The notes beneath the pieces were generated by a model. That model had not been told where the DNA came from. It was given only the letters and a program-made list of their open reading frames with translations, and did no database searches. Source: Candidatus Parcubacteria bacterium (lineage in GTDB: Bacteria > Patescibacteriota > Patescibacteriia > Magasanikbacterales > UBA922). From it: a stretch of DNA of 13,484 nt. This document shows, piece by piece, positions 1 through 13,484 of the stretch (positions are counted from its first letter, which is position 1; every line of letters starts with the position of its first letter). The position numbers and the translations under genes were made by a program. The DNA is taken from NCBI GenBank assembly GCA_018646705.1, contig JABGUG010000060.1, forward strand, positions 1-13,484, read 5' to 3'.

Positions 1-207
1 ATTTATTTCACCATCTAAAAATTCATCAATACGATGTTCATTTTCTATCAGAAAATTGACACCAAAGAAGAATAGAATACCAAAAATAACCAGACCAACA
101 AGCACTGATCTAATTTTTGATTTTGTAACTGGATCCATTGGTGCTTGTGACCCTGGATCAGAAGATTGCGGTGGTTGCGATGGTGGAGGTTGATTTAAGT
201 TTTGCAT
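1..207 (-). CDS. Partial small membrane protein, 3' end off-window. ATG at 207..205. N-terminus is Pro/Gln-rich (MQNLNQPPPSQPPQSSDPGSQAP...), followed by one TM helix (VLVGLVIFGILFFFGV).
   Basis: Hand translation of the minus strand gives an open frame from the ATG at 207 to the window edge (69 codons). It lies 18 bp downstream of the alaS stop on the same strand. It is absent from the ORF track, presumably because no stop lies inside the window. No recognisable family. Confidence 0.3.
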   Translation of the reverse strand, partial: MQNLNQPPPSQPPQSSDPGSQAPMDPVTKSKIRSVLVGLVIFGILFFFGVNFLIENEHRIDEFLDGEIN

Positions 208-225
208 ATGATTCCTTGTTAAGAT

Positions 226-2049
226 TTATTCAAGGATAGCTTTGATACGACGAATACCTGCGGAAGATGATTCTTCTTTTTTGATTCTAAAGTGACCCAT
301 GTCGTTTAAATTTTCAACATGTGGACCTCCACAAATTTCTTTACTTGCTGTCTCATCGTCTGATCCAATTGTGTACACTTTTACCTTTTCTCCATATTTA
401 TCACCAAAGAGTCCAATGGCTCCCTGACTTTTAGCATCTTCCACTGTCATTTCTTCCATAGAAATAACAAGTTTTTTCTCAATTGCTTCATTTACTAATT
501 TTTCAACTTGTTGTTTTTCTTCATCAGTCATCTTGTCTGGATGTGTAAAATCAAATCTAAGTCTATCAGCAGTAATATTACTTCCCTTTTGTCCCACATG
601 ATCTCCCAAAACTTCTCGAAGTGCTGCGTGAAGTAAGTGTGTTGCAGTGTGATACTTTGTACTCATCTCTCCATGATCGGCTAGTCCGCCTTTAAACTTT
701 TGTTCAGCACCTTCGCGAGACAAACTCTTATGTTTTTCAAATGCTTCATTAAAAGCCTTTTCATCAACAGTTAAACTATTCTCACTAGCTAACTCCTGAG
801 TCATTTCGAGTGGAAAACCATATGTATCATAAAGCTTAAATGCTTGTTTGCCAGAAATTTTTGTGATCTTTTTGTTTGTTTTTTCAAAAGCCATTTCAAA
901 ACCTTTGAGTAATTTTTCAAATTCTTTGATACCCTGTTCTAATGTTTGTCTAAATTTATTTTCCTCATTCTTCATCTCGCGCAAAACAAATTCCTCGTTT
1001 CTTTTTACTTCTGGATATACATCTGCAAAAATTTCAACAACACGCTGCGCCATTTCAACACAAAAATTATTTTCAATACCAAGTTTCTTTCCATGGCGAA
1101 TAACACGTCGAATAAGTTTACGTACCACATAACCTTGATCGACATTACTTGGAGCAACTCCTGAATCATCTGCCATTATCATACTTGCCGTACGAATATG
1201 ATCCACGATCACACGCATAGACATGAGAACATCCTTATTTTCTCCATATTTTTTTCCAGAAATTTCTTCGATTTTTTCCACTAGAGGTTTGAGTGTATCA
1301 ATTTGATATACATCTGAAAAACCATTCAAAACAGTCACGGTACGCTCAAGTCCCATTCCTGTATCAACATTCTTTTGTGTAGACTGAATAAATGTTCCGT
1401 CTTTTTGTTTATTGTATTGCATGAATACATCATTCCAAATCTCAAGCCAATTGTTTTCATCAGTTCCTGGATTACTATTCTCATCTGGAAATTCTGATTT
1501 ACCAACCCAATAAAACATCTCACTATCAGGACCACACGGACCAGTTTGACCAGCTGGCCCCCACCAGTTGTCCTTTTTTGGCAATGCAGCAATCTTGTGT
1601 TCTGGTACACCAAGAGACAACCATTTTTGTTTTGATTCTTCATCAAATGGTGCATCATCGTCTCCTTCAAAAACAGTTACTGCCAACTTTTTTGTATCGA
1701 GTCCGAGATAATCTTTTGATGTAAGAAATTCCCAACTCATTTCAATGGCTTCTTCCTTAAAATAATCACCAAGTGACCAATTACCAAGCATCTCAAAAAA
1801 TGTAAGGTGTCCAATATCACCCACTTCATCAATATCCCCTGTTCTGACACACTTTTGTACATCAGTAAGTCTCGTACCTTCTGCGTGTTTTTCACCCATC
1901 AAGTATGGTACGAGTGGATGCATACCAGCAGTAGTAAATAATACAGTTGGATCATTTTCTGGAATCAAAGAAGCTGACGAAATAATCGCATGATCTTTTG
2001 ATTTGAAGAAGTCTAAATATTTTTGTCTCAGTTCGTATGATGTAATCAT
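226..2049 (-). CDS. alaS: Alanine--tRNA ligase, short form (607 aa): catalytic, tRNA-recognition and editing domains, lacking the C-terminal C-Ala/oligomerisation domain.
   Basis: Class II AlaRS signatures in the translation: FTTAGM, WGPAGQTGPCGPDSE, GMGLER. Editing-domain motifs HTATHLLHAALR (HxxxH) and CGGPHV. The protein ends shortly after the editing domain. Confidence 0.93.
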   Translation of the reverse strand: MITSYELRQKYLDFFKSKDHAIISSASLIPENDPTVLFTTAGMHPLVPYLMGEKHAEGTRLTDVQKCVRTGDIDEVGDIGHLTFFEMLGNWSLGDYFKEEAIEMSWEFLTSKDYLGLDTKKLAVTVFEGDDDAPFDEESKQKWLSLGVPEHKIAALPKKDNWWGPAGQTGPCGPDSEMFYWVGKSEFPDENSNPGTDENNWLEIWNDVFMQYNKQKDGTFIQSTQKNVDTGMGLERTVTVLNGFSDVYQIDTLKPLVEKIEEISGKKYGENKDVLMSMRVIVDHIRTASMIMADDSGVAPSNVDQGYVVRKLIRRVIRHGKKLGIENNFCVEMAQRVVEIFADVYPEVKRNEEFVLREMKNEENKFRQTLEQGIKEFEKLLKGFEMAFEKTNKKITKISGKQAFKLYDTYGFPLEMTQELASENSLTVDEKAFNEAFEKHKSLSREGAEQKFKGGLADHGEMSTKYHTATHLLHAALREVLGDHVGQKGSNITADRLRFDFTHPDKMTDEEKQQVEKLVNEAIEKKLVISMEEMTVEDAKSQGAIGLFGDKYGEKVKVYTIGSDDETASKEICGGPHVENLNDMGHFRIKKEESSSAGIRRIKAILE

Positions 2050-2052
2050 AAC

Positions 2053-3576
2053 TTATAAATTCTTTAATTTTTCTATTCCGAAATTAAATTCCCTCCATGA
2101 TTGTTTTATGTCTGAAAAATTTTTATAATCTTTGTTCGAGATTCTCTTGTGCAAATGTCTAAACTTATTTCCAAGATATATATTTTTGAAATTTCCTTCA
2201 CGATAACTTAAATCATTATTTGTACCTTTATATTCAAAACCAGAATCAAACGCCCTTTTTACCTCTGGTATTGCATCTACGGAAAGATGAAATACCAAAT
2301 ATCCCATATCCAACTCTTTGCCTTCGTTAATATATCTATCTACATTTTCACGCGCAATTACACGATCAACATTTATAGACGAAACAATACACATGGCTCC
2401 TACACCGAGCACCATACTTGTATATAAAAAGTTTCTAAATTTCCAATCAACAGAAATGCTCACTGCTGACAGAGTCAAAATAATAACACAAAAATAAATA
2501 AACCACTCCACATACAATCTAAGTACTGTGTAACCAAATTGATCCTGATATATATTCATGCGTTTGAGCGCAGACATGGCAATCACACCAACCTGTATAA
2601 CAAGTAATATTTTTAATAATTTCAAAAGTGTATGACTTCCATGATGTACTGCTGATCTATAAAAAACAATAAGCATCGCAGCAGCAAGAGCAATTACCCA
2701 CGCTAGCTGAAAAAATCCACTACGTGCATACTCAGCAAAATTAATATTATTTTGCACCACAAAGTCATGAGAACCGAATAGATAATTGAGCTGTATAAAT
2801 ACAAAAAGTGCAAAGAGTATATTTACAAGCCCAAGGACAATAGATACAACTGTGTTATCGATTTTGAATACACGAAATTTCTTTTCTTTCAAAATATACA
2901 ATGGATCAATCACTGTATAAAACAATCCACCAAGAAATAATGTAATGAGACCTGTACGAACAATACGCCACACTGTCTCCTCTTCTATTATAAAATTAAA
3001 ATTAAATATATTACCTACCAATTCAGCAAACACCGCATCAGCCTTTACAAATAACAATCCAAATACAAAGAGAATAGGTACTGCAATAGCTAATGCTAAT
3101 GCAATCTTTTTATATATCTCACTGTGTTTTTCTTTTTTTGTAGAAAATAAATCACGAAACATATGACCCCATTTAGTAAGCGGCAAACCAATGCTACGTA
3201 GGACAGGGATTTCAGAAAAAGAAAACAAGTGTTTCCCAGGATTTTTTAGCGTTAACAAAATTGAAAATAAAAACATAAGTAATGCGACAAATAACATTAC
3301 CCAATTGCGTACAAAATCATTATTATAAAATAATATGTCCAAAGAAAATATAAAAATTGGTATAAGTAGTAGCAACGCCTTTGGGTGACGAATTTGATCA
3401 CTAAGTAATGAAAGCACTGAAAAACCGAGTACATAAAAAGCTACAAACAATACAAAACCAAATCCAGGTTGTAATCCCCAAAAGAATACATCATACAAAA
3501 TAGCAACAAGAAGAGCAAAACCAACATATGTAACTCGCCAATGACGCTTTAGTGTTTGCTGTATTGTTTGTTCCAT
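2053..3576 (-). CDS. Polytopic integral membrane protein (about 10-12 predicted TM helices, short soluble C-terminal region), function unknown; possibly a DUF4173/DUF4153-type large membrane domain.
   Basis: 507-aa ORF with many long hydrophobic segments and positive-inside loops. Its stop is 3 bp from the alaS start. Family assignment is from memory of the architecture only. Confidence 0.75.
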   Translation of the reverse strand: MEQTIQQTLKRHWRVTYVGFALLVAILYDVFFWGLQPGFGFVLFVAFYVLGFSVLSLLSDQIRHPKALLLLIPIFIFSLDILFYNNDFVRNWVMLFVALLMFLFSILLTLKNPGKHLFSFSEIPVLRSIGLPLTKWGHMFRDLFSTKKEKHSEIYKKIALALAIAVPILFVFGLLFVKADAVFAELVGNIFNFNFIIEEETVWRIVRTGLITLFLGGLFYTVIDPLYILKEKKFRVFKIDNTVVSIVLGLVNILFALFVFIQLNYLFGSHDFVVQNNINFAEYARSGFFQLAWVIALAAAMLIVFYRSAVHHGSHTLLKLLKILLVIQVGVIAMSALKRMNIYQDQFGYTVLRLYVEWFIYFCVIILTLSAVSISVDWKFRNFLYTSMVLGVGAMCIVSSINVDRVIARENVDRYINEGKELDMGYLVFHLSVDAIPEVKRAFDSGFEYKGTNNDLSYREGNFKNIYLGNKFRHLHKRISNKDYKNFSDIKQSWREFNFGIEKLKNL

Positions 3577-3580
3577 ATAA

Positions 3581-3682
3581 TTATTTTAGATATTTGAATG
3601 CAAAAAATAACAATATGCCAACCACTATTAGTACTGGCCATATGGTTACAAGTAACCCGACTAGAAAATTTGCTTCTTGCAT
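3581..3682 (-). CDS. Possible 33-aa single-TM micro-protein (MQEANFLVGLLVTIWPVLIVVGILLFFAFKYLK).
   Basis: Hand-translated minus-strand ORF, ATG 3682..3680, TAA 3583..3581. The stop is followed by 4 nt (TTAT) and then the ATG of the downstream polytopic membrane protein at 3576, a translational-coupling-like arrangement. Too short for the ORF track. No homology can be asserted. Confidence 0.3.
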   Translation of the reverse strand: MQEANFLVGLLVTIWPVLIVVGILLFFAFKYLK

Positions 3683-3711
3683 ATAATATTAATATTAAGA
3701 TTGAAAATTAG

Positions 3712-3785
3712 ATAACTACACCACCACCTCATCCTTCGCTAAAGCTACGGATGACAAGCATACTTTATATAACTACACCACCACC
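3712..3785. repeat. Perfect 17-bp direct repeat ataactacaccaccacc at 3712-3728 and 3769-3785, separated by 40 bp.
   Basis: Seen directly. The 3769-3785 copy encodes the last six codons of mnmA (GGGVVI). The 3712-3728 copy on the minus strand reads GGTGGTGGTGTAGTTATC-TAA, i.e. again GGGVVI followed by a stop. The intervening 40 bp contains a 6-bp inverted repeat tcatcc/ggatga. Confidence 0.6.
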
Positions 3786-4871
3786 CAGACATTCGCCATC
3801 TAAATAAAATACAGCAAATTGCCCTGGAGTGACCGCACGCTCAGAGTTTTTGAATTGGATCGTATTACCGTCAACCGTGCATTCTCGCAATTCTTGACGA
3901 TGACGCATCCTTACTTTACATTTTAACGGAAAATCCGGGGTCCGTCCAGCAATCCAATGTACATCTTCTAACTCAATTTTGTCTCTATATAGCAAAGGAT
4001 CATCTTTTTCACCAACAACCAATTCATTTGAATCAAATCTCTTGTCTACCACAAACAATGGTTCCCCTCCTCCAGGCTGCTCAAACCCATGTCTTTGTCC
4101 AATTGTATAAAATGCAAGACCTTTGTGTTCTCCTATTTTTGTGCCATCAGACATAATTATTTCACCAGGCTGTATGGACAGGTCTAGACCTGTCCCTCCA
4201 TTTGCAGCCTTGGTTCTCAAAAATTCTTCCATCGACACTTCGCCAACAAAACAAATTCCCATACTTTCTTCTTTTCCTGCAGTTGGCAAATCAAATTTCT
4301 CAGCAAGTTCACGTACCTGCGTCTTTGTGTAGTCACCTAGGGGAAATAATGTATGCGAAAGTTGCTCTTGATTTAACTGATGCAAAAAATATGTCTGATC
4401 CTTATTCTCATCCTCAGCCTGCACCAAAGAAAAGTGTGCTTGTCCGTCATAGCTCGAAGAACGAAGACGGGCATAGTGACCTGTTGCCATTTTATCAAAT
4501 CCTAAATCCTTAATTTTTTCTAACCAAGACCCAAATTTTACAAACTTATTACACATCACATCTGGGTTTGGCGTTCTACCTTTTTCATATTCTGCAAACA
4601 TGTGATCTAAAACTTTACTCTGGTATTCTTTTTTAAAATCTAATTTCAAAAGCTGAATACCAAGCTTAGCAGCCACACGCACCGCATCCCTATAATCTGG
4701 CACCCAACATGATTCCCCTGTTGCGCCCACACCTTCATGATCATCTGTATCATAATTGATCATATATGCTCCGGCCACATCATAACCCTGATCTACCAAA
4801 AGAGCAGCGACAACTGACGAATCAACACCTCCAGACATTGCTACAAGAATTTTTTCTTTTTTCTCTGTCAT
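3765..4871 (-). CDS. mnmA: tRNA-specific 2-thiouridylase MnmA (tRNA U34 2-thiolation).
   Basis: PP-loop SGGVDSS near the N-terminus and the NPDVMCN catalytic-cysteine motif. C-terminal beta-barrel region with C...C. 368 aa, typical MnmA length. Start overlaps the upstream HD gene stop by 4 bp (ATGA). Confidence 0.93.
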   Translation of the reverse strand: MTEKKEKILVAMSGGVDSSVVAALLVDQGYDVAGAYMINYDTDDHEGVGATGESCWVPDYRDAVRVAAKLGIQLLKLDFKKEYQSKVLDHMFAEYEKGRTPNPDVMCNKFVKFGSWLEKIKDLGFDKMATGHYARLRSSSYDGQAHFSLVQAEDENKDQTYFLHQLNQEQLSHTLFPLGDYTKTQVRELAEKFDLPTAGKEESMGICFVGEVSMEEFLRTKAANGGTGLDLSIQPGEIIMSDGTKIGEHKGLAFYTIGQRHGFEQPGGGEPLFVVDKRFDSNELVVGEKDDPLLYRDKIELEDVHWIAGRTPDFPLKCKVRMRHRQELRECTVDGNTIQFKNSERAVTPGQFAVFYLDGECLGGGVVI

Positions 4872-5491
4872 AATTCTATTGGTTCAATTTTGGATTTTAG
4901 ATATTCTCTATATTTTTTTTCAACAGCATCCATTAATTTTTCTTTTTTAATTATCTTTTTGGCAGTTTTGGTATGAACATGTATATATGTTTCATAAACA
5001 TGCCGTAAATGCCAGTTCCAATCTTCATCAGAAGAACAAAGATGACTCATACGTTTTATACCCACTTCTCCATATGCATCAAGCTTGTCTGCATCACGCA
5101 AAATCCAAGCTGTATCATATTTGTCAGCAACATTATTCCAATGATACCGAACTGTATACAATATTTCCTTTTTCTCTTCATCTTTTAAAATATCAAACTC
5201 ACGATCTTCCTTAAACCACTCACGCAATATAACATATGAAAGCTCATGATGCTTACGACTGTTTTCTCCTGGTTTATCTTCTCTAGTCCTACCAATATCA
5301 TGAGTTAATGCTGAGAGTTCACACAAAAATGGATTACTAGCTTTCTCGCCTTTGGCAATCTTAATAGTAGAATCAACAACACGAAAAATATGATCCATAC
5401 CGTGTGCAGGATCTGTATAATCTTCAAAAAGCTTTTCAACTTTTTCTTTTGTGTGATTTATTAGTAATTGTTGTTGTTTTGTATATTTCAT
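4868..5491 (-). CDS. HD-domain metal-dependent phosphohydrolase.
   Basis: H...HD...D metal-ligand pattern: HGMDHIFRV, LTHDIGR, LRDADKLD. The track ORF extends to 5539, but that start is a TTG (verified by reverse-complementing 5537-5539). The first in-frame ATG is at 5491..5489. A TTGATT-N17-TATTAT promoter-like element (5553-5558 / 5530-5535) would sit inside the longer ORF, so the ATG at 5491 is favoured. Confidence 0.8.
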   Translation of the reverse strand: MKYTKQQQLLINHTKEKVEKLFEDYTDPAHGMDHIFRVVDSTIKIAKGEKASNPFLCELSALTHDIGRTREDKPGENSRKHHELSYVILREWFKEDREFDILKDEEKKEILYTVRYHWNNVADKYDTAWILRDADKLDAYGEVGIKRMSHLCSSDEDWNWHLRHVYETYIHVHTKTAKKIIKKEKLMDAVEKKYREYLKSKIEPIEL

Positions 5492-5529
5492 GATCAAAAA
5501 ATCATAAATCTTACGAATATGTGTAATGA

Positions 5530-5558
5530 ATAATACCAATATTATGCTAAAAAATCAA
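5530..5558 (-). promoter_or_regulatory. Putative sigma70-like promoter for the HD/mnmA transcription unit: -35 TTGATT (5558..5553), 17-nt spacer, -10 TATTAT (5535..5530).
   Basis: Read by eye on the minus strand immediately downstream of the Zn-ribbon gene terminator. No experimental support. Confidence 0.3.
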
Positions 5559-5565
5559 GAAAAAA

Positions 5566-5582
5566 CCCCGACTCAGTCGGGG
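5566..5582 (-). terminator. Rho-independent terminator hairpin ccccgac-tca-gtcgggg, flanked by A6 upstream and T4 downstream on the plus strand (T-rich tract tttttt-c-ttgattttt downstream on the minus strand).
   Basis: Perfect 7-bp GC-rich stem with a 3-nt loop, 26 nt downstream of the stop of the minus-strand Zn-ribbon gene at 5608. It could act bidirectionally. Confidence 0.7.
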
Positions 5583-5607
5583 TTTTCAAAAATATATAGT
5601 AATGCAC

Positions 5608-5901
5608 TTAAGCATCTTTGTTCTTGAGATAACATTCTTTACAAAGAAGATTGCTGGTATCTCGTGGTTCGAATGGTAATTGTGTGATTTGAGTACCACA
5701 TCCTGAGCAAGGTACATTTACATCAAACATTTTACGCTCTCCACCGCCACTATTACGTTGTTCACGGTGAGCCTTGTTACAGTCTGAGCAATATACTGGA
5801 CGATCTCCAGATGGTTGGAATGGTAATTGTGTGATTTTTGCACCACATTTTCCACATTCACAATCTACATCGAACATCTGGCGATCATTAAAATCGTTCA
5901 T
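5608..5901 (-). CDS. Small (97 aa) protein made of two tandem CxxC-x18-CxxC zinc-ribbon modules (FmdB-like zinc-ribbon architecture).
   Basis: Two internal repeats: MFDVDCECGKCGAKITQLPFQPSGDRPVYCSDC and MFDVNVPCSGCGTQITQLPFEPRDTSNLLCKEC. The halves share a 26-nt near-identical DNA segment (5665-5690 vs 5812-5837, one mismatch), 147 nt apart. The gene is flanked by a consensus promoter and a hairpin terminator. Confidence 0.8.
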   Translation of the reverse strand: MNDFNDRQMFDVDCECGKCGAKITQLPFQPSGDRPVYCSDCNKAHREQRNSGGGERKMFDVNVPCSGCGTQITQLPFEPRDTSNLLCKECYLKNKDA

Positions 5902-5979
5902 ATTTTTTCCGAAATTTATTTTGAATAAACCTTATCCGACCTTTTTGGGAATACACCATGCATTACCCAACTACGACAT

Positions 5980-6010
5980 ATTATATCACCATCTTATTTT
6001 GACGTCAAAA
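5980..6010 (-). promoter_or_regulatory. Near-consensus sigma70 promoter: -35 TTGACG (6008..6003), 17-nt spacer, -10 TATAAT (5985..5980). It is overlapped by the perfect 14-bp palindrome TTTTGACGTCAAAA (5997-6010).
   Basis: Read directly on the minus strand. It lies about 80 nt upstream of the Zn-ribbon gene ATG (5901) and immediately downstream of the SPFH gene stop (6027). Confidence 0.5.
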
Positions 6011-6026
6011 TAATATTTGGGGCCTA

Positions 6027-7106
6027 TTAGACTCCTCGAAACATTGGCATTCCATTGCTAGCATTGGTCGGTACGTAAATTGTACCCTCTCTATCTTTCA
6101 GACTATTGATGTATAAATATTCAAGATATCTAGGTGTCAAACTTTGATTGATGATTTGTTGCGCATCACGCTGACCTTCTGCCTCAATACGTTTTCTATC
6201 TGCTTCTTTTTCTTCTGTTTGAAGAAGAAAATCATATCTTTGTGCTTCTTGCTCAGCTTGAAGTTTTAGTTGAATACTCTGTGCTAGATCAGCTGGTAAT
6301 TCCACATGACGAAGTAGAACATCTTCTATCTCAATACCACGTGGATCTAGCTTGCCCGTCAATCTATCTGCAATACCTTGAGCAGCTTCTTGACGTTTTT
6401 CACTATAAATATCTTTTGCATCATAACCTGCTATCACTTCGCGAATCACACTTCTAATTTGTGGTCGAATAATAACTTCATCATAATTAAGACCTACATC
6501 ACGATATACATCTGATGCTTTTTCTTCTACCATACGATATAAAACAGTAATATCAAGGTCAACACTCAAACCTTCTTTTGTAAGAGCAGTAATAACGTCA
6601 GAACCATAACGCTTTCCTTCTCCTTGTGTAATACTCATTGTGTATTCTTGTGTACGAATATTCATTCGTGTAATTTTTTCAAGTGGATTTTTGATATGAA
6701 ATCCAGAATGAAATTCACTGTCTCTAACTTTACCAAAAAATGAACGTACACCAGTCTCACCCGCATCTATTACTACCCAAAATGCACTGGCAAAACTTAG
6801 GAAAAGAAGAAAGACAGCGCCGATTACTACCCAAAACCCAATCTTTGCTTTTTTTCTTGGATCAATTGTTTCCATAGGCTTTTCTTTGTTAATTAAATTT
6901 TTTTTAATAGAATTAATAACATTATCAAAATCAAAAGATGTATTTGGTTTTGAAGTTTTTTTATCTTTATATTTTATTGATGCTAAAAAAAGCAAAATTA
7001 TACCCAAAAATATAAAAAATCCACTATTTGCCAATACACCAATCAAAAATCCGCCTAGCCCAAGAACAAATAATGGGTATTTATCAAATATTTTCTTTAA
7101 GTCCAT
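6027..7106 (-). CDS. SPFH/band-7 (stomatin/prohibitin/HflK-C family) membrane protein.
   Basis: Core SPFH-like region: FFGKVRDSEFHSGFHIKNPLEKITRMNIRTQEYTMSITQGEGKRYGSDVITALTKEGLSVDLDITVLYRMVEEKASDVYRDVGLNYDEVIIRPQIRSVIREVIAGYDAKDIY. It is followed by a coiled-coil (LKLQAEQEAQRYDFLLQTEEKEADRKRIEAEGQRDAQQII), preceded by a TM helix, with an extra hydrophobic N-terminal segment. An alternative internal ATG at 6875 (METIDPRKK) would remove the first hydrophobic segment. Confidence 0.88.
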   Translation of the reverse strand: MDLKKIFDKYPLFVLGLGGFLIGVLANSGFFIFLGIILLFLASIKYKDKKTSKPNTSFDFDNVINSIKKNLINKEKPMETIDPRKKAKIGFWVVIGAVFLLFLSFASAFWVVIDAGETGVRSFFGKVRDSEFHSGFHIKNPLEKITRMNIRTQEYTMSITQGEGKRYGSDVITALTKEGLSVDLDITVLYRMVEEKASDVYRDVGLNYDEVIIRPQIRSVIREVIAGYDAKDIYSEKRQEAAQGIADRLTGKLDPRGIEIEDVLLRHVELPADLAQSIQLKLQAEQEAQRYDFLLQTEEKEADRKRIEAEGQRDAQQIINQSLTPRYLEYLYINSLKDREGTIYVPTNASNGMPMFRGV

Positions 7107-7134
7107 ATGTTATTCTTAATTTTCACATTTACAA

Positions 7135-7359
7135 TTAACTGACTACTCCGGTTATTCCCTCACACCCTTCAGGAACTTTACACTCTTTACCAATGGTAGT
7201 TTCTCCAGTTGGATATTGACCAGGCATACAGTCTATATATGCAGGGCACTCTGCCCTTTTAACATCCATTCTATACTTTAGTAGAAAAAAAGTTCCTGTA
7301 AGTAATAATAGCAAAATAAAAATTGTTATGAGTATCTTCTCTGTTTTTTTTAAAGACAT
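7135..7359 (-). CDS. Cys-rich membrane-anchored micro-protein (74 aa): N-terminal signal-anchor TM plus a ~40-aa ectodomain with C-x5-C ... C-x5-C.
   Basis: ATG at 7359 lies 4 bp after the upstream gene stop and 28 bp before the SPFH gene. Sequence AECPAYIDCMPGQYPTGETTIGKECKVPEGCEGITGVVS. No family recognised. Confidence 0.55.
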   Translation of the reverse strand: MSLKKTEKILITIFILLLLLTGTFFLLKYRMDVKRAECPAYIDCMPGQYPTGETTIGKECKVPEGCEGITGVVS

Positions 7360-7362
7360 ATA

Positions 7363-7785
7363 TTATTCTTCATCCTTAGTAGGAATTTCTGTTTTTTTCG
7401 ATTCCATAGTGTATGTTGCATCAAACTCAAATCCAGCATATGTAGCGAGAAGAATTCCTTCGGCAATACCAATATACATGAATACATTGCTATAAAATAC
7501 ACTATATGATTTTACAAACAATGGAACCGTGATAGCAATATCAAGCACCGTACCAACAAGCACACCAATTATACCAAGCAGAAAGCCTTTCTTTGTTGTT
7601 GGTGAATCCTCTCTAAAATACCATTTTGCAAGCAATAGAACAAGTGGAATCAAAAGTATCCAAAGAATAAGAAATTGGTAAAAATCCTTATCTTGCAAAC
7701 TCGGTGTAAACATGAGTATTGAAATAATAGCAAATATTCCTACCCACAACATTACCCCAAAAGCGATGGCTCTTTTTATTTTCAT
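7363..7785 (-). CDS. Small integral membrane protein (140 aa, about 4 TM), unknown function.
   Basis: Four hydrophobic stretches. Tightly packed between the PPDK_N-domain gene (16 bp upstream) and the Cys-rich microprotein (4 bp downstream). Confidence 0.65.
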   Translation of the reverse strand: MKIKRAIAFGVMLWVGIFAIISILMFTPSLQDKDFYQFLILWILLIPLVLLLAKWYFREDSPTTKKGFLLGIIGVLVGTVLDIAITVPLFVKSYSVFYSNVFMYIGIAEGILLATYAGFEFDATYTMESKKTEIPTKDEE

Positions 7786-7801
7786 ATATTTTTAATTAAA
7801 A

Positions 7802-8773
7802 TTAATTATTTTTTAATGTCGTAATTGGTCTACTCTGTGTAATATATAATTCATCATTATCATCAATCGCCCACTCAATATCGCAAGGAAAACCATAATG
7901 TGCCTCAATACGCTTACACATTTCTGCAACTTGAATAGTTTGTTTTCCAGTTAGTTTTTGCTTTCCACCTTCTGATTCGTCTAAATCAATCCAAACATTT
8001 TGTGCATGTCGGTCGCGACCGTCATCTACGTTTTGCATCAATTTCTTACTTTGGTTGCCAACATTAATATCAAGAATGCTCATTTCTAATTTTGAAACGA
8101 CATAATTATCTGGTGTGATCTGACCACTTACAATTGCTTCCCCTAACCCAAAACCCGCTTCTATAATCATCTGATCTCTGTCTTCTGTCACTGGATGAAC
8201 AGTGAAAGCTACCCCTGATACTTCGGATTGTATCATTTTTTGTACTACTACACCAACGGATACGTTCTGATCATTCAAATTTTTTTCATAACGATAAAAA
8301 ATTGCTCGCGGTGTAAAAAGTGAAGACCAACATTCCTTTACTTTTTCAACAACATTATCTCGAGTAATATTTAAAAATGTATCTAATTCTCCTGCCCAAC
8401 TAGCAATTGCGCCGTCTTCGGCTGTGGCAGAAGAACGAACAGCAACAAACTCTGCATTCAACTCATTGAAAGATTTCAAAATTTCTTCTGCCAAATCTAA
8501 TGGCATTTCTGTATCATGAATCACATCGCGAATAACTGAACTAGCCTTATCAACAGAGTTTATATCATCTGGATTTACTTGCTTGAGGCGTGCATCTATT
8601 TCTTGTTTTAAATCTGTTTCTTCTAAAAATCTATCAAAAGCGTCAGCAAGTACCACAAAGCCAGGTGGCACAGAAATTCCGGCTTGGGTCATTTCACCAA
8701 GAGATGCGCCTTTGCCTCCAGCTTCTGATACACTAGTTTTATTTATTTGTTTAAAAAATTTTATATGATTCAT
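7802..8773 (-). CDS. Stand-alone PEP-utilising-enzyme N-terminal nucleotide-binding domain protein (PPDK_N / PEP synthase N-terminal ATP-grasp-like domain only), 323 aa. It lacks the phosphohistidine swivel and PEP/pyruvate TIM-barrel domains.
   Basis: GGKGASLGEM near the N-terminus, AVRSSATAEDGAIASWAGELDTFLN, AGFGLGEAIVSGQITPDNYVV, and YGFPCDIEWAIDDNDELYITQSRPIT at the C-terminus all match the PpsA/PPDK N-terminal domain. The ORF stops at the domain boundary, and the next gene is an unrelated membrane protein. Confidence 0.85.
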   Translation of the reverse strand: MNHIKFFKQINKTSVSEAGGKGASLGEMTQAGISVPPGFVVLADAFDRFLEETDLKQEIDARLKQVNPDDINSVDKASSVIRDVIHDTEMPLDLAEEILKSFNELNAEFVAVRSSATAEDGAIASWAGELDTFLNITRDNVVEKVKECWSSLFTPRAIFYRYEKNLNDQNVSVGVVVQKMIQSEVSGVAFTVHPVTEDRDQMIIEAGFGLGEAIVSGQITPDNYVVSKLEMSILDINVGNQSKKLMQNVDDGRDRHAQNVWIDLDESEGGKQKLTGKQTIQVAEMCKRIEAHYGFPCDIEWAIDDNDELYITQSRPITTLKNN

Positions 8774-8777
8774 GATA

Positions 8778-9575
8778 TCATTTTATAAATTTTTTCCAAA
8801 TATTACCCATTTGTTCTACTAGATCTTCTGCATTATAAAAAGTTCCTTTTTTTTCATACGATTCATCCCCTGCTAAACCAGCGAGATGTATTCCAACACA
8901 AGTAGCTGTAATATTATCATTTGTACAGGAAAGTGCTGCAACAGTTCCAGATACTACATCGCCGGTTCCACCTTTTGTCATTCCTACATTTCCTGTTCTG
9001 TTTTCCCAAATATCTTCTCCATTACTTACATAATCATATTTACCCTTAAGAAGTACAGTTCCTCCATATTCTATAGCCATCGTATGTACATGATCTGAAG
9101 TTGGTTTACATTTATATACTTGCTCAAATTCACGTGAATGTGGTGTTAAAATTGTATTGTTATTTATCCATGCAGGATTAAGATGCCACATAGCTGTTGC
9201 ATCTATTACTATTTTTTTATCTTCATATTTTGTTAACAATGTTTTTACCAAACCAACATTTTCCCCAGTCTCAGCCATTCCAGGCCCAATTAGGACAGCA
9301 TCTACCATATCAACAGTATTCCACAACTCTTCTTCTAATACAGGAATAAAGACGGCTACATCTGACTTTAGATTATCAATAATACCTCTGTTATTCGGTG
9401 TGGTATATACATACACCATATCTACTATTCGAGATGCAGTTTGAACAGCCAAAAGCAAGGCTCCATGAAACTTTTCAGATCCAGCTATTATAAGAAGTCG
9501 GCCATTTTGACCTTTGTGGCTGTCTTTTTTTGGTTTTTGTAAATCCCCAAAAATGGATTGATCTATTATCTTCAT
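8778..9575 (-). CDS. nnrD: ADP/ATP-dependent NAD(P)H-hydrate dehydratase (YjeF C-terminal domain; ribokinase-like fold).
   Basis: HKGQNGRLLIIAGSEKFHGA near the N-terminus and GMTKGGTGDVVSGTVAAL near the C-terminus are hallmark YjeF_C motifs. 265 aa. No YjeF_N epimerase domain is fused. 4-bp gap to the downstream PPDK_N-domain gene. Confidence 0.88.
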   Translation of the reverse strand: MKIIDQSIFGDLQKPKKDSHKGQNGRLLIIAGSEKFHGALLLAVQTASRIVDMVYVYTTPNNRGIIDNLKSDVAVFIPVLEEELWNTVDMVDAVLIGPGMAETGENVGLVKTLLTKYEDKKIVIDATAMWHLNPAWINNNTILTPHSREFEQVYKCKPTSDHVHTMAIEYGGTVLLKGKYDYVSNGEDIWENRTGNVGMTKGGTGDVVSGTVAALSCTNDNITATCVGIHLAGLAGDESYEKKGTFYNAEDLVEQMGNIWKKFIK

Positions 9576-9612
9576 ATATATATTGTGCTCTGTTGAGAGA
9601 AAAAAGTCAATA
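9576..9612 (-). promoter_or_regulatory. Possible promoter upstream of nnrD: -35 TTGACT (9609..9604), 17-nt spacer, -10-like CACAAT, then a 6-nt leader before the ATG (or a leaderless TATATAT-ATG arrangement).
   Basis: Read by eye in the 107-bp intergenic region between the MTase-fold gene and nnrD. Weak -10. Confidence 0.25.
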
Positions 9613-9682
9613 CGAGCCTTAAATAAATAAAAAACGATTATAAAGTATAACCGCTTTTTAAAATTTAGACATAAACCAAATA

Positions 9683-10498
9683 CTACTTCTTTATAACAAG
9701 TATTGGCACATCAGATGAAAACCACTCTTCACCAAATCTTACTCCATGCAAAGTAGCATTTCCTTCTATTACCTTTATAATATCTTGAAAAAGAGGAATA
9801 TAAACTTTTAAACTCATATTTTTTATATCTAGGTCTTCAAAATAATCCAACTCACTTTTCCTCATTTTTTTGTTTTTATAAAGTTTCAAAAAATTCTTCC
9901 ATACTCCAGGAAAAGTACCTTCTTCTTTTTTATAATCATAAGCACTTTTAAACATTGGTGCCATCACAGTTTCTAAAATCGGACGATGCTTCATTTTTGT
10001 CCTATAAAAATGCAAAGCTTTTGCCAAGTCCCCACGCTCGCAGTCATAACGTACAAATGTTTTGAGCATACAAAGCCCATCGGTTTTAAGCATTTTGGAA
10101 ATATTTTTGATAAATTTTGGCTGATCTTTTTTTGACAATACATTGATACAAAAGTCTCCTACAATAAGATCAAATTTTTGTTTAGGACTAACTGTTCGCC
10201 AATCTTTTGTTATAAGCGTTTCTTTGTGTTTTTTCCTTTTCATGAGCGTACCCATTGCTTCATAATTTTCTTTTCTGTAATCAACCACGGTACATGATAA
10301 TTTATATTTTGCATACAAATCACGAAACTCACTTGTGGAACCAAATACCAACACATTGGGTTTTTTCTTTTTCAAAAGAATTTTCTTCAAAATATCTTCG
10401 TATACTTTCATCTCACCTGGAGATGGGCGGTCTGGCGGAGTCCACTTACCCCAAGATTTTGCCAAATTTTGTGTCCAGGTTTTATTTTTTGAAGACAT
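9683..10498 (-). CDS. Rossmann-fold, class-I SAM-methyltransferase-like protein with a degenerate motif I (VLVFGSTSE instead of GxGxG).
   Basis: Order of motifs: VLVFGSTSEF (motif I-like), KLSCTVVDY (acidic post-I), FDLIVGDFCINVL (motif II-like), MLKTDGLCMLKTF (motif III-like). 271 aa. Assignment is by motif order only. Confidence 0.5.
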   Translation of the reverse strand: MSSKNKTWTQNLAKSWGKWTPPDRPSPGEMKVYEDILKKILLKKKKPNVLVFGSTSEFRDLYAKYKLSCTVVDYRKENYEAMGTLMKRKKHKETLITKDWRTVSPKQKFDLIVGDFCINVLSKKDQPKFIKNISKMLKTDGLCMLKTFVRYDCERGDLAKALHFYRTKMKHRPILETVMAPMFKSAYDYKKEEGTFPGVWKNFLKLYKNKKMRKSELDYFEDLDIKNMSLKVYIPLFQDIIKVIEGNATLHGVRFGEEWFSSDVPILVIKK

Positions 10499-10510
10499 AA
10501 TAAAAAATAA

Positions 10511-12736
10511 TTAATTATCAAACCTAACTATCTCATCTTGATTAATGTGTTTTGGTTTATCTTCTGTTTTATTCTGCACGTCCTTTTTCTCTTTAGATTC
10601 TGCATTTTGTGGAGACCTATCAGGACTATTATTATTTTGTGCACCACTTTTCTTCTTTCTACGTCTACGTCTTTTTTTCTTACTTGGTTCAGTACTAGGA
10701 CTATTTTGAACATTTTGTGGTTTGATAACATCATTACTGTCTGTAATAATCTTCTCACCAGTGCCAACAATCTTTTCTTTCAAAATTTCTGGATTATTTG
10801 TATTATCTTTTATACCAAGAAATTTAGTACCACCACCTTTACCACTTCGAATAGCCTGAAATTGAGCCAATGCATCATCTAGTGAACCAACCCATATATC
10901 TGGGGATTTATTCGCTCCAAAAATTTCTTCGGTGTTGGCTGACTCATACATATCTATTTTCACATCATATATTTTAACACCAGCTTTTTCATATATCGAT
11001 CCTTTACGCCTTCCTTTGTTGTCTAAAACAACATCTTTAGGTTTATTTTCTGGTAAAAATACATATTTATGATCACCGTCTTTGTGTTTTATAATATAAT
11101 CTGCATTTTTTTCAAAATAATCAATAATTTCTTTTTTAAATTTTTTCGGTGATGAAGTTTCTTTTGTTTTCTCATCATCTTTTCCTAAGAACCCAAGTGT
11201 GTCTTCGCCAACAGTTTCTGTGTCTTTAGACTTTTCAGAAGCAGGAGGCAAAAGATCTTTTAGAGATACGGTTTCTTCTGGTTTTGTTTTTTCTATTGGC
11301 TCAGACTTCTTTTCAGTATTCGTACCTACCTCAATCTTTTTTTCTTTTTTCTTTCCATCATTTTTTTTATTTTCAACTTCTGACTTAATAGTAGTATCAA
11401 CATCTTCATCATCATTTACATCAGGACCCATTCCACTCCAACGTAAGATCTTATCTTCGATCATTTCACGAGATTTACCATAACGCTCACGAGAAACACG
11501 TATTACTTTTTCTTTTGATCCTGTAGCAGAACCAATTGGTGGCAATGTTAATGCACTAAATGGCTGAGATGCAACTCCATCAATCATTAATTTTAATAAA
11601 ATTTGATATTTGGCAAGATTCACGATATCTGTTTCAATAAATGTTGGCTCGAATTCTTTTGTGAGCATCTCTGCGTCTGCACCACCAACACGAAACGATA
11701 CAATTGTTCCTACATTTCCAAATACAGCATCTGCTACAATTTCATCAAGCTGAGCAACATACTGATGTGCCATAATAAGACTTAATCGATATTTACGTGC
11801 CTCAGACAAAATATTTGCAAAACTAGGTGTTGCAAAATTTTGAAATTCATCAACATACAAGAAAAAATCCTTACGTTCACTTTCTGGCATATCTACACGC
11901 TCCATTGCAGCAAGCTGGATTTTTGTAATAAGCATTCCACCAAGCAATCTACTATTATCTTCTCCGATACGACCCTTTGACAAATTCATGATTAAGATCT
12001 TCTTGTTATCCATGAGTTCTCGAATATCAATTGTGGATTTTACCTGAGCCACCATGTTACGAATTACAGAAGCTGACATGAATTGACCAATCTTATTTTG
12101 GATAGGAGCTACAGCTTCTTTGGCATACCTAGGTTCATAATTGGCAAATTCATCTTGCCAAAAAGCTTTTACAACAGGATCTTTAAGTTGTTTTACTACT
12201 TTACGACGATAATTCTTATCAGCAAGCAAACGATTAATTCCCATAAGTGTGGAACCTGGATAATCAAGTAATGCCAAAAGTGTATTATTCAAAATATATT
12301 CCATTCTTGCACTCCATACATCTGGCCAAATTTTCTTAAAAATTCCCATAAGTCCAGAAGCGATCAAGTGTTTTTGTTCTTCACTTTTAACTTCCAAAAT
12401 ATTAAATCCTATTGGAAAGTCTATATCTGATGGATTCAAATAAATAACATCATTAATACGACTTGATGGAATAAAATCTACTAATTTTTCAGCAAAATCC
12501 CCATGTGGGTCTACAACTCCAACGCCGTGACCTTTGTAAATATCATGAAGAACCATGTTTTCCATCATGGTTGTCTTGCCCATACCAGTCTTTCCAATCA
12601 CGTACATATGTCGACGTCTGTCATCAGTCTTTGTCCCAAACTTAACTGGCTGGCTACGATAATTAGTCTGCGCAAAAATACAGATATCTTCTTTGATCTT
12701 TTCTTCACCTTTTGGTTTGAGATTTTCTATGGGCAT
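10511..12736 (-). CDS. TrwB/TraD/VirD4-family (type IV coupling protein-like) P-loop ATPase. It is a soluble variant without the N-terminal TM anchor, with a ~300-aa Lys/Glu-rich low-complexity C-terminal tail ending in a polybasic KKKRRRRRKKK stretch.
   Basis: RRHMYVIGKTGMGKTT (Walker A) followed by VVDPHGDF (the DPxGD/E motif typical of T4CPs, cf. TrwB ...VIVDPNGD). Walker B FFLYVDEFQNF. SLIMAHQYVAQLDE (conserved Q motif). Walker A sits at residue ~47 with no upstream hydrophobic segment. Residues ~440-741 are K/E/D/T-rich. Confidence 0.85.
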   Translation of the reverse strand: MPIENLKPKGEEKIKEDICIFAQTNYRSQPVKFGTKTDDRRRHMYVIGKTGMGKTTMMENMVLHDIYKGHGVGVVDPHGDFAEKLVDFIPSSRINDVIYLNPSDIDFPIGFNILEVKSEEQKHLIASGLMGIFKKIWPDVWSARMEYILNNTLLALLDYPGSTLMGINRLLADKNYRRKVVKQLKDPVVKAFWQDEFANYEPRYAKEAVAPIQNKIGQFMSASVIRNMVAQVKSTIDIRELMDNKKILIMNLSKGRIGEDNSRLLGGMLITKIQLAAMERVDMPESERKDFFLYVDEFQNFATPSFANILSEARKYRLSLIMAHQYVAQLDEIVADAVFGNVGTIVSFRVGGADAEMLTKEFEPTFIETDIVNLAKYQILLKLMIDGVASQPFSALTLPPIGSATGSKEKVIRVSRERYGKSREMIEDKILRWSGMGPDVNDDEDVDTTIKSEVENKKNDGKKKEKKIEVGTNTEKKSEPIEKTKPEETVSLKDLLPPASEKSKDTETVGEDTLGFLGKDDEKTKETSSPKKFKKEIIDYFEKNADYIIKHKDGDHKYVFLPENKPKDVVLDNKGRRKGSIYEKAGVKIYDVKIDMYESANTEEIFGANKSPDIWVGSLDDALAQFQAIRSGKGGGTKFLGIKDNTNNPEILKEKIVGTGEKIITDSNDVIKPQNVQNSPSTEPSKKKRRRRRKKKSGAQNNNSPDRSPQNAESKEKKDVQNKTEDKPKHINQDEIVRFDN

Positions 12737-12764
12737 AAAAATATATAAGCCTTAGTTCCAACTT

Positions 12765-12773
12765 ATTGTACCA
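12765..12773 (-). promoter_or_regulatory. Extended -10 promoter element TGGTACAAT upstream of the T4CP-like ATPase gene (-10 hexamer TACAAT 12770..12765).
   Basis: Minus strand reads ...GGAGTGTTTTATGGTACAATAAGTTGGAACTAAGGCTTATATATTTTTATG. The TGn-TACAAT lies about 28 nt upstream of the ATG (12736), with AAGG about 13 nt upstream as a possible SD. Confidence 0.35.
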
Positions 12774-12935
12774 TAAAACACTCCAAAATTAAATCTCATG
12801 ACTTATTTTTTTACTAATCTATATTTCTTAATCATTTTTAATTTAATATATTTTCCTTAAACTAGCAAAAAATATAGAGAATACTTGACACTGCTACAAT
12901 TCTATGTTAAATTGTACTGTTTACCTAAATTATCT

Positions 12936-12974
12936 ACTGAATATTGATTTTTCCATTATAAGCTAATATTCAGT
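12936..12974. repeat. Perfect 10-bp inverted repeat actgaatatt (12936-12945) / aatattcagt (12965-12974) with a 19-bp spacer, about 20 bp before the base-composition switch.
   Basis: Seen directly. A second weaker IR tacaatt(12895-12901)/aattgta(12910-12916) and an outward-facing TTGACA(12885-12890)-N17-TAAATT element lie just upstream. Confidence 0.5.
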
Positions 12975-12989
12975 GGGGAATTTTCATAC

Positions 12990-13484
12990 TAGGACGCCTT
13001 TGCGCCCTGGGTTGTATCCCGCTGTACGTATACAAGTGTTTTTTTGTTGTACGGGTATGAAAGGAAAGACCAGTGGACTACTACACGTTCCGTAAGTACG
13101 CCCGACCTCTTATCTTGGCCGGCGCCATCCTGGGTATCATTCTCGGTACCCTAGAATTCGCCGCGTTCATGTCCTCCCCCAAGTGGGAGAACGAAACCTA
13201 CTTGAGGTGGACCGCGGGCTACGTCCCGCCGCCGCCCATCGACGTGGGTACCCGTCCACCCACCGAGGAGGCACTCGAGGAACAGTGCCGGACCGACCGG
13301 ATCCGCGAGAAGGCCACGGAGGAATCCGAGGCTTGGCTCACGGTTCAGCGTGCCGCACAGGCTGAGGCCGACGAACGGTATGCGAAGTACTTCGCGTCGC
13401 TGCCTCAGGCAAAACAACAGCCGAAGGAGAGGCCGCTGTTCATCTGGGACCTGCGACCGGGCGAGTCCTTGGGACAATTCACGC
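12990..13484. other. Abrupt compositional discontinuity: sequence switches from about 30% GC to about 60+% GC and stays GC-rich to the end of the window.
   Basis: Visible by eye: 12737-12989 is almost pure A/T, whereas 13080-13484 is dominated by G/C with codons such as GCC, GAG, CCG, CTG, GAC. The transition zone 12990-13072 is about 50% GC. Confidence 0.8.
13073..13484 (+). CDS. Partial (5' end present, 3' end off-window) high-GC ORF of unknown function. GTG start preceded by AAAGGAAAG (AAGGA SD, 7-nt spacer). N-terminal TM helix (PLILAGAILGIILGTLEFAAF) then a Pro/Glu/Ala-rich soluble region.
   Basis: Hand translation: VDYYTFRKYARPLILAGAILGIILGTLEFAAFMSSPKWENETYLRWTAGYVPPPPIDVGTRPPTEEALEEQCRTDRIREKATEESEAWLTVQRAAQAEADERYAKYFASLPQAKQQPKERPLFIWDLRPGESLGQFT..., 137 codons without a stop. 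Third codon positions are about 80% G/C, a strong frame-specific signal. The two track ORFs in this region are in other frames and look like GC-rich shadow ORFs. Confidence 0.6.
   Translation, partial: MDYYTFRKYARPLILAGAILGIILGTLEFAAFMSSPKWENETYLRWTAGYVPPPPIDVGTRPPTEEALEEQCRTDRIREKATEESEAWLTVQRAAQAEADERYAKYFASLPQAKQQPKERPLFIWDLRPGESLGQFT

Follow-up and report, generated by a model that had tools for sequence, protein, structure and literature searches.

Contig JABGUG010000060.1 of the Candidatus Parcubacteria assembly GCA_018646705.1 is AT-rich over nearly its whole length and turns abruptly GC-rich shortly before it ends, inside an open reading frame (ORF) whose protein we call P0001. This raises two questions: does the GC-rich stretch belong to the chromosome on which it was assembled, and, if it does, how did a gene of such composition come to stand there? 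The window analyzed here is the entire NCBI contig (13,484 bp), whose annotation ends with a partial gene for a 137-aa hypothetical protein (MBT3539400.1); the sequence read amounts to 22 kb of this genome and 7-14 kb per relative. An earlier note made from the letters of the window had described a jump from AT-rich to GC-rich DNA at about 12,990, a plus-strand ORF from 13073 with a strong GC bias at third codon positions (GC3) and an AAGGA-N7-GTG start, and a gene set typical of the Candidate Phyla Radiation (CPR) in the remainder, and these descriptions are all accurate. The GC content is 0.342 in positions 1-12990, 0.601 in 12991-13484 and 0.626 from 13073 onward. Windows of 200 nt go from 0.245 (12800-12999) up to 0.645-0.675 (13100-13399), and all 500-nt windows outside the GC-rich end are at or below 0.41. 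The maximum over 300-nt windows of the parent genome is 0.647 against a median of 0.353 with a standard deviation (sd) of 0.057, a departure of more than 5 sd. The ORF is open to the end of the window with GC at codon positions 1/2/3 of 0.61/0.48/0.78, compared with a GC3 of 0.17-0.30 in nine native minus-strand genes. A tRNA search of the window gave no match, and Rfam gave none with E < 0.1 on the window or on the locus L008, to which the window is identical over 3,412 nt.

The earlier note had offered a chimeric contig or contamination as one explanation; high-GC reads would then have been mis-joined to the end of a CPR contig. The window contig does stop within the GC-rich part, where another four short contigs break too. 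However, at least 13 further assemblies share the identical AT-to-GC junction; they were made from different samples with different assemblers (ENA, Logan, and JGI) and include contigs of 213,597 and 469,587 bp. These were found by looking up the neighboring 741-aa protein and then the GC-rich protein itself, and in 13 contigs all overlaps with a 1.2-kb reference across the island match the window at 100% identity. The longer ones pass through the island: GC stays above 0.5 for ~750 nt only and then falls to ~0.35 again, with murG, ftsW, and the L27 gene. The diverged sister lineage L007 has the island at the same site, with a synonymous divergence like that of the adjacent murG, and three further lineages carry GC-rich islands at this site. 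Since the junction recurs unchanged in 13 other contigs and the sequence returns to AT-rich CPR genes, the stretch must be a one-gene island inside a CPR chromosome. We concluded that it is genuine and fixed in this AT-rich Parcubacteria chromosome, that the contig simply broke within it, and that, as far as assemblies can tell, a mis-join deserves next to no credence. As to whether the GC-rich segment continues in the parent sequence, it does so for one gene (~0.75-0.8 kb), and beyond that gene GC is back at ~35%. Five independent short contigs (the window, L004, L005, L006, and the 10,479-bp contig of MBT3949257.1) stop inside the ORF, in ascending order after 46, 61, 61, 137, and 150 codons; a coverage dip from the GC bias of sequencing may explain these breaks, which are partly an ascertainment effect.

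The complete P0001 ORF has 216 codons and a GC of 0.60/0.49/0.79 at the three codon positions (coordinates of this and the other features are collected in Table 1). Its codon choice is opposite to native use, with arginine mostly encoded by CGN (CGC/CGG), lysine by AAG, and glutamate by GAG. The combined share of G, A, R, and P residues (GARP) in the protein is 0.33 as compared to 0.17-0.24 in native proteins, and its FYMINK share is 0.21 as compared to 0.25-0.37. The gene is thus as foreign-looking as the earlier note had it. A very recent acquisition, as the note also proposed, does not fit the comparison with L007, which comes from a different sample, keeps the order of the upstream region of the 741-aa gene, the island, and murG, and is ~89% identical in nucleotide sequence. 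In this one sequence pair, the synonymous divergence (dS) of the ORF is 0.29 and the nonsynonymous divergence (dN) is 0.072, giving a ratio (omega) of 0.25; the differences at codon positions 1/2/3 number 21/15/34. The adjacent murG fragment gives a dS of 0.25 and an omega of 0.10. The island has diverged together with its flanks and was therefore already present before the two lineages split, which makes the gene older than a split with a dS of ~0.27. Differences between the sister lineages that exchange strong (S) and weak (W) pairs number 38 vs. 31, unpolarised for want of an outgroup.

GC peaks in AT-rich genomes are usually caused by structured non-coding RNAs, and the GC-rich block could be such an RNA with an incidental ORF. 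The leader described below is conserved in structure, and the RNA of the ORF folds more stably than dinucleotide-shuffled controls (z = -2.4 for the ORF alone and, over 20 shuffles, -4.4 for the ORF with its 3' untranslated region [UTR]; L008 3001-3735). Furthermore, several frames stay open where the DNA of these AT-rich genomes is GC-rich, which misleads gene callers, and shadow ORFs occur on the opposite strand. Against an RNA stand the strong codon periodicity, with GC3 far above GC at second positions, and the omega of 0.25 in the sense frame, compared with 1.3-1.4 in the shifted sense frames and 0.83 and 1.47 in two antisense frames. At 11% divergence the 651 nt contain no indels, the start codon is GTG here and ATG in L007 behind the same AAGGA, the ORFs of all four lineages open with a hydrophobic signal or anchor segment, and no Rfam family was matched. 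An RNA with an incidental ORF is accordingly very improbable. The remaining antisense frame has its third codon positions in common with the sense frame, and its low omega of 0.34 is what a shadow frame should show; a 108-aa antisense ORF inside the GC-rich gene (window 13151-13477, minus strand) has no independent support. Across the lineages the ORF RNAs of the slot reach z values of -1.4 to -7.2 (the lowest for the L105 ORF, 7352-7897), as compared to +1.6, +0.2, and -0.6 for three native 650-nt pieces; this stability could reflect selection for structure or be a by-product of GC3 periodicity.

P0001 is a real protein-coding gene whose product is predicted to be a single-pass, membrane-anchored exported protein. 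The N-terminus is basic (R7, K8, R11) and is followed by a hydrophobic helix at about residues 12-33, a proline-rich linker, and long charged helices rich in Trp and Arg; a CxxxC is conserved at the C-terminal end. By the positive-inside rule the topology would be N-in/C-out, i.e., with an exposed C-terminal domain, which would be mostly helical and charged. An AlphaFold2 model places helices at 3-34, 65-109, and 133-201, with low confidence (pLDDT 64, pTM 0.24).

The site of the island is a conserved slot. Syntenic loci were found with the 741-aa protein and MurG as handles; the former is an ATPase resembling the coupling protein (T4CP) of type IV secretion systems (T4SS). In three related lineages, L097, L105, and L111, an extremely GC-rich gene for a protein with a signal peptide lies in the same position and orientation (Table 1), in genomes with a background GC3 of 0.29-0.38; a one-off accident is therefore unlikely. 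The slot is not filled everywhere: L110 has murG followed directly by the T4CP homolog with 147 bp between them, and L107 and L016 have other arrangements lacking the island. A scan for GC3 outliers in ~0.6-0.7 Mb of other AT-rich Patescibacteria loci returned only two weak cases. The public gene calls in two of the islands are on the wrong strand (L097 4446-5084, plus strand, 212 aa; L105 7430-7906, plus strand, 158 aa; both without a Pfam match), and the strands opposite to these calls carry ORFs with a ribosome-binding site, a signal peptide, and GC3 of 0.89 and 0.96. In the empty murG/T4CP intergenic region of L110 (1363-1509), a long near-perfect palindrome follows three GGATACGAAA repeats and does not resemble the leader seen where the slot is occupied.

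Related lineages also have GC-rich genes in a second slot (Table 1), which lies between a 264-aa gene and the L27 gene and is empty in the species of the window. Its units are laid out as a native promoter, a long AT-rich hairpin, the GC-rich gene, a GC-rich hairpin, and a native terminator, and they follow the GC plan of the first slot. Judged by the make-up of its sequences, among them a dipeptidase gene in L103, this clade carries genes of clearly foreign high-GC type.

What is conserved at the first slot includes the DNA in front of the gene. A promoter-like site that is AT-rich, and thus native in composition, points at the ORF, and TTGACA-17-TA(T/A)A(C/T)T is found at the equivalent place in L007, L097, L105, and L111. 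It is followed by a leader hairpin, H1. The core of H1 is the perfect inverted repeat ACTGAATATT (12936-12945) / AATATTCAGT (12965-12974), which has a 19-nt loop and ends 17 nt before the GC rise. In all lineages the arms begin with CTGAA and end with TTCAG, and the interiors differ but are mutually complementary: ATTGAATGTT / AACATTCAGT in L097, CTGAATTCCAGA / TCTGGTATTCAG in L105, and CTGAACCGTG / CACCGTTCAG in L111. RNAalifold on the five sequences of the leader comparison gave 17 consensus pairs for H1, four of them with compensatory double changes, and the leader folds have z values from -2.8 to -5.6. A covariance model of H1 matched this slot only, in 698 kb. The earlier note had asked whether a second copy of the inverted repeat flanks the GC-rich segment; the repeat is a conserved leader hairpin, and neither the repeat search nor the covariance model found another copy at the far end of the island. 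The repeat was also considered as the end of a mobile element and rejected, given the lack of a second copy and of direct repeats and the compensatory changes typical of an RNA helix.

Downstream of H1, the second part of the leader (H2/H3, an outer and an inner helix) was aligned by eye. The changes in L007 restore its pairs (GCGCCC to GCGTCC and CCCGCTG to CCCACTG). The corresponding helices are AGUAGG / CCUACU (outer) and CCCUCGA / UCGAGGG (inner) in L097, CCCUCCGCU / AGCGGGGGG (inner) in L105, and UCAGUC / GACUGA (outer) and GGCUAGGC / GCCUGCC (inner) in L111. The segment CAGUGGGGA (12971-12979) can pair either upstream with UAUCUACUG (12931-12939), at the base of H1, or downstream with UCCCGCUG (13017-13024), in the outer helix. 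The 5' strand of the outer helix thus overlaps the 3' arm of H1, and the two pairings are therefore alternatives. This three-part layout of alternative pairings recurs in L097, L105, and L111 with different helix sequences. The leader resembles an attenuator or the expression platform of a riboswitch, and we infer that it may act as a switch. Rfam on L097 and L105 gave nothing on the island or leader (the sole match above the gathering score was a tRNA elsewhere in L105), and a search for the leader pattern in IMG/VR gave nothing.

Table 1. Position and properties of the features in the window and in the GC-rich slots of related lineages.
Feature	Locus	Position	Strand	Basis or remarks
Sigma-70-type promoter-like site, TTGACA-17 nt-TAAATT with TG extension, pointing at the ORF	Window	12885..12913 (= L008 2813-2841)	+	10/12 consensus matches
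Leader hairpin H1, core a perfect 10-bp inverted repeat, extended by G-U pairs to ~14 bp	Window	12927..12983	+	RNAalifold, covariance model
Second leader part: outer helix CAGUGGG 12971-12977 / CCCGCUG 13018-13024 around GC hairpin GGACGC 12992-12997 / GCGCCC 13002-13007	Window	12971..13024	+	Read from sequence
Shine-Dalgarno-like AAGGA, 7 nt before the start codon	Window	13061..13065	+	Kept in L007
GC-rich ORF, first 137 of 216 codons (P0001), truncated by contig end	Window	13073..13484 (full gene 13073-13723, extrapolated coordinates)	+	Open frame, composition, L007 ortholog
T4SS coupling-protein-like ATPase (TrwB/TraG/VirD4-type), 741 aa, native left flank	Window	10511..12736	-	Pfam TrwB_AAD_bind 2.5e-15, DUF87, TraG-D_C
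Slot: murG, 62-63% GC island, AMMECR1, T4CP homolog	L097 (GCA_002869205.1), MurG 85% identical		-	ORF of 119 aa, signal peptide, GC3 0.89
Slot: murG, radical-SAM gene, 66-81% GC island, AMMECR1	L105, MurG 72% identical		Oriented like P0001	ORF of 181 aa, signal peptide, GC3 0.96
Slot: murG, 59-69% GC island, T4CP homolog	L111 (GCA_964558135.1), MurG 68% identical		Oriented like P0001	ORF of 119 aa, signal peptide, GC3 0.94
GC plan, promoter to first hairpin	Every unit			24-36%
GC plan, distal 5' UTR	Every unit			36-59%
GC plan, ORF	Every unit			61-75%
GC plan, 3' UTR with GC hairpin	Every unit			48-65%
GC plan, native terminator	Every unit			26-40%
Second slot: 103-aa ORF	L097	677-988	+	GC3 0.86
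Second slot: PepD dipeptidase	L103	674-2131	+	TIGR01893 E 7.6e-153; GC 0.63, GARP 0.34

P0001 is an orphan. A word-indexed search of 5.8 billion clusters returned only P0001 and its 87% identical ortholog, and a profile hidden Markov model (HMM) run against 1.84 billion representative proteins returned only P0001; among the occupants of the slot, these large protein-database searches covered P0001. Nothing was found in GTDB species genomes, IMG/VR, INPHARED phages, or PLSDB plasmids, and JGI metagenomes gave an identical copy only. Pfam, PHROGs, NCBIfam, PADLOC, and PDB sequences gave nothing significant (best DUF4226, E 0.07). Horizontal gene transfer (HGT) into Patescibacteria is documented, chiefly from other Patescibacteria (PMC12455944). 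We found no donor for P0001 among ~1.07 Mb of Patescibacteria loci, including some with a GC content of 55-66%, which show that high-GC Patescibacteria exist. The earlier note had read the codon usage as being of the Actinobacteria type; with no match outside its own lineage among the 1.84 billion representatives, the taxonomy of the best protein matches points to no donor taxon, actinobacterial or other. Its argument from epibionts living on Actinobacteria has no direct support here either: the genome is labeled Parcubacteria, with relatives named Magasanikbacteria, and the CPR bacteria known for an epibiotic life on Actinobacteria are the Saccharibacteria, to which it does not belong.

The explanation we favor, though we put it at somewhat short of an even chance, is that a foreign-type high-GC ORF took the place of an earlier occupant in a conserved expression slot. 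The slot is the position between murG and the T4CP-like gene, filled by genes for small exported proteins, and the unit consists of a native sigma-70-type promoter, the structured leader, the 216-codon GC-rich ORF, a GC-rich 3' hairpin, and a native bidirectional terminator common with murG. P0001 would have replaced the earlier occupant after the split from L097, the nearest sampled relative, but before the two sampled sister lineages diverged; thereafter it would have passed down vertically, kept by purifying selection, with the native promoter and leader driving its expression. The murG gene of L097 is 85% identical to that of the window lineage (dN 0.095). Between the sister lineages the dN of the ORF is 2.9x that of murG, which predicts ~55-65% identity to the L097 occupant if the two were orthologous. 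BLASTP does not align the 119-aa occupant of L097 with P0001 even at E 100, and the two have no cross-frame similarity, which argues for replacement rather than slow divergence. If the third positions were neutral and inherited from a common ancestor, AT-biased mutation should have brought GC3 down to the native level at this divergence. The patchy distribution with empty-site relatives (L110, L107, and L016) is a feature of horizontally acquired islets and is present here, though four lineages hold an island.

Several observations weigh against a replacement from outside. No donor or homolog of P0001 outside its own lineage turned up in any database searched, and a transfer recent enough to leave GC3 at 0.79 should show a recognizable donor if that donor is sampled. 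The borders have no mobility genes, direct repeats, or att-like duplications: no integrase or transposase was seen within 10 kb on either side of the island, and the border repeats were limited to chance-level pairs (9-12 nt direct and one 21-nt inverted pair of 76% identity), none of them convincing. The GC rise begins almost exactly at the start codon, behind 98 nt with 46% GC and a native-looking ribosome-binding site; a rise coinciding with the ORF is odd for the insertion of a random donor fragment. Every sampled occupant is GC-rich, and three of them (L097, L105, and L111) have a common Cys loop, C-x2-6-[FYHW]-x0-2-DG-x1-3-C (shuffle p ~1e-4 each, for a motif defined post hoc), which fits one old family better than independent captures. 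Finally, the L097 and L111 occupants have a native-like GARP of 0.18-0.19 despite a GC3 of 0.89-0.94.

These points lead to the alternative of one old, clade-restricted, fast-evolving gene for an exported protein, inherited vertically together with its promoter and leader, its GC-richness actively maintained, and with P0001 as a strongly derived member, an account that we regard as a strong rival, if less probable than replacement. Selection on mRNA structure or stability, selection for slow translation through rare codons, or GC-biased conversion could supply the maintaining force. In favor of an old gene, the promoter, leader hairpins, orientation, and terminator are orthologous in four lineages, over which the dS of murG runs from 1.5 to saturated, and every occupant has an N-terminal signal or anchor. 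The lack of homologs outside the clade, with no donor among 15 billion proteins, fits such a gene, as do the native-like GARP values just mentioned, the stable folds of the occupant RNAs, and a GC content that peaks in the ORF as compared to 36-65% in the UTRs and 24-40% in the stretch from promoter to H1 and in the terminator. Third-position differences number 34 vs. ~53 expected under free AT-biased mutation, a deficit that is not significant given the error of the murG rate. On the other hand, the dS of the ORF (0.29) is not below that of murG (0.25), so that no strong synonymous constraint is visible, and we know of no precedent for a GC3 of ~0.9 held in a genome with a GC3 of ~0.3 over saturating divergence. 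Pairwise similarity among the four occupants was not significant in BLASTP and shuffle tests, with no similarity across frames, and MAFFT did not align the Cys loops of the three signal-peptide occupants. P0001 itself has no Cys loop and differs from the L097 occupant in length and architecture, and the foreign-type PepD shows that the clade takes up high-GC genes.

A related and broader claim, which we consider more doubtful than not, concerns the slot itself. It would be a dedicated expression site, with its promoter and new leader RNA, that holds an exported-protein gene at ~80-96% GC3 in genomes with ~20-35% GC3, over saturating divergence, by an active force. Selection on mRNA or rare codons, GC-biased conversion, or continual renewal from a hidden pool of high-GC genes, for instance the host, would be the candidates for this force. 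If true, GC-richness would belong to the function or mechanism of the locus and would not be the passive scar of one transfer.

We also considered exchange by hairpin-directed or site-specific recombination, as in integrons or in elements of the IS200/IS605 type, including palindrome-associated transposable elements (PATEs). H1 would then be the recombination site, and the ORF with its 3' GC hairpin the mobile part. The order of promoter, hairpin, single small ORFan, and 3' hairpin recalls the Pc-attI-cassette-attC arrangement; small ORFans of deviant composition are the typical content of integron cassettes, and different ORFs stand behind the same leader in different lineages. The slot of L107 (7034-7801) holds a 255-aa gene with a faint Pfam match to a Y1 (HUH) transposase. 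However, no integrase, transposase, or TnpB was seen within the 10 kb on either side, there is a single unit and no array, the 5' and 3' hairpins are unrelated, H1 has no second copy in the 698 kb searched, and its compensatory changes are those expected of an RNA helix. Inspection by eye found no GTTRRRY / RYYYAAC core pair around the 3' hairpin. The features of IS200/IS605 elements or PATEs (related end hairpins, TnpA/TnpB, and multiple copies) were absent from the 22 kb of this genome. A mobile cassette is therefore improbable. As for a diversity-generating retroelement, the island sequence has no repeat at the locus, and no reverse transcriptase is found among the neighbors in the same 22 kb.

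The replacement that we favor can be compared with known systems. Like ORFan islets, the island consists of one gene that is confined to a lineage, strongly deviant in GC and codon usage, without homologs, absent in some relatives, and fixed within the species. It differs in being GC-rich in an AT-rich genome (ORFans are more often AT-rich), in having no mobility genes or repeats at its borders, in a GC change that coincides with the ORF, and in that other lineages hold other GC-rich ORFs at the site behind an orthologous leader. At HGT hot spots and minimal mobile elements, known from Neisseria and from hot-spot surveys, alternative genes stand between conserved core genes and are exchanged via homologous flanks. 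The conserved flanks (murG and AMMECR1 or the T4CP-like gene), variable content, empty sites, and lack of mobility genes are alike; here, however, promoter, structured leader, and terminator are conserved too, only the ORF and the proximal UTRs vary, and all occupants are alike in being small, exported, and extremely GC-rich. Integron cassettes resemble the unit in the small deviant ORFan, the resident promoter upstream, and the hairpin after the ORF, and differ in their integrase, array, and recognizable attC cores, whereas the upstream hairpin here is RNA-like and unique to the locus. The vlsE gene of Borrelia encodes a surface protein and is much GC-richer than its AT-rich genome. Like the genes of the slot it is a fast-evolving gene for an exposed protein that lies far above genomic GC across related lineages; at our locus the 10 kb to either side showed no silent cassettes or paralogs, neither a strong GC skew nor G-runs were noted, and GC3 is far more extreme. 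None of the systems compared combines a conserved promoter and structured leader, GC enrichment centered on the ORF, and small exported occupants with 79-96% GC3.

These results bear on the curation of metagenome-assembled genomes, in which a sharp GC break at a contig end is normally trimmed as contamination; here the break is real. Gene callers put the GC-rich gene on the wrong strand in two relatives, so that genes of this kind are systematically lost or mis-annotated. CPR bacteria rely on other cells, with which their exported or surface proteins are the likely interface. A fast-changing, exported, and compositionally alien occupant behind a conserved regulatory leader makes this a candidate host-interaction locus. 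It also provides a testable case for the origin of ORFans of deviant composition and for whether a gene can stay far from genomic GC in the long term.

The remainder of the window agrees with the CPR assignment. Its genes include a short alanyl-tRNA synthetase (AlaRS), DUF4153, MnmA, HD, Band7, PPDK_N, Carb_kinase, a methyltransferase, and the 741-aa TrwB/TraG-like ATPase. NCBI labels this genome, as well as the one with a 100% identical 741-aa protein, Candidatus Parcubacteria. The ATPase gene (GC 0.34, GC3 0.22) is transcribed divergently from the GC-rich gene and marks the conserved slot. The protein has more than 585 homologs in Patescibacteria, with identity of up to 74-85% over the N-terminal ~55-65%; its C-terminal third is of low complexity and highly variable, and it is the constant neighbor of the slot. 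Genes for Avd-like / 23S-rRNA intervening-sequence (IVS) proteins are found around ftsW and murG in L103 (3074-3451 and 4620-4997) and L107 (5589-5960). Within the window, the AlaRS (226-2049, minus strand) has just 607 aa, and a 97-aa protein with two treble-clef zinc fingers (5608-5901, minus strand) adjoins the T4CP homolog again in L017 and L018. The PPDK_N gene (7802-8773, minus strand) stands alone, and the counterpart position in L097 is taken by four tandem PEP-utilizers genes.

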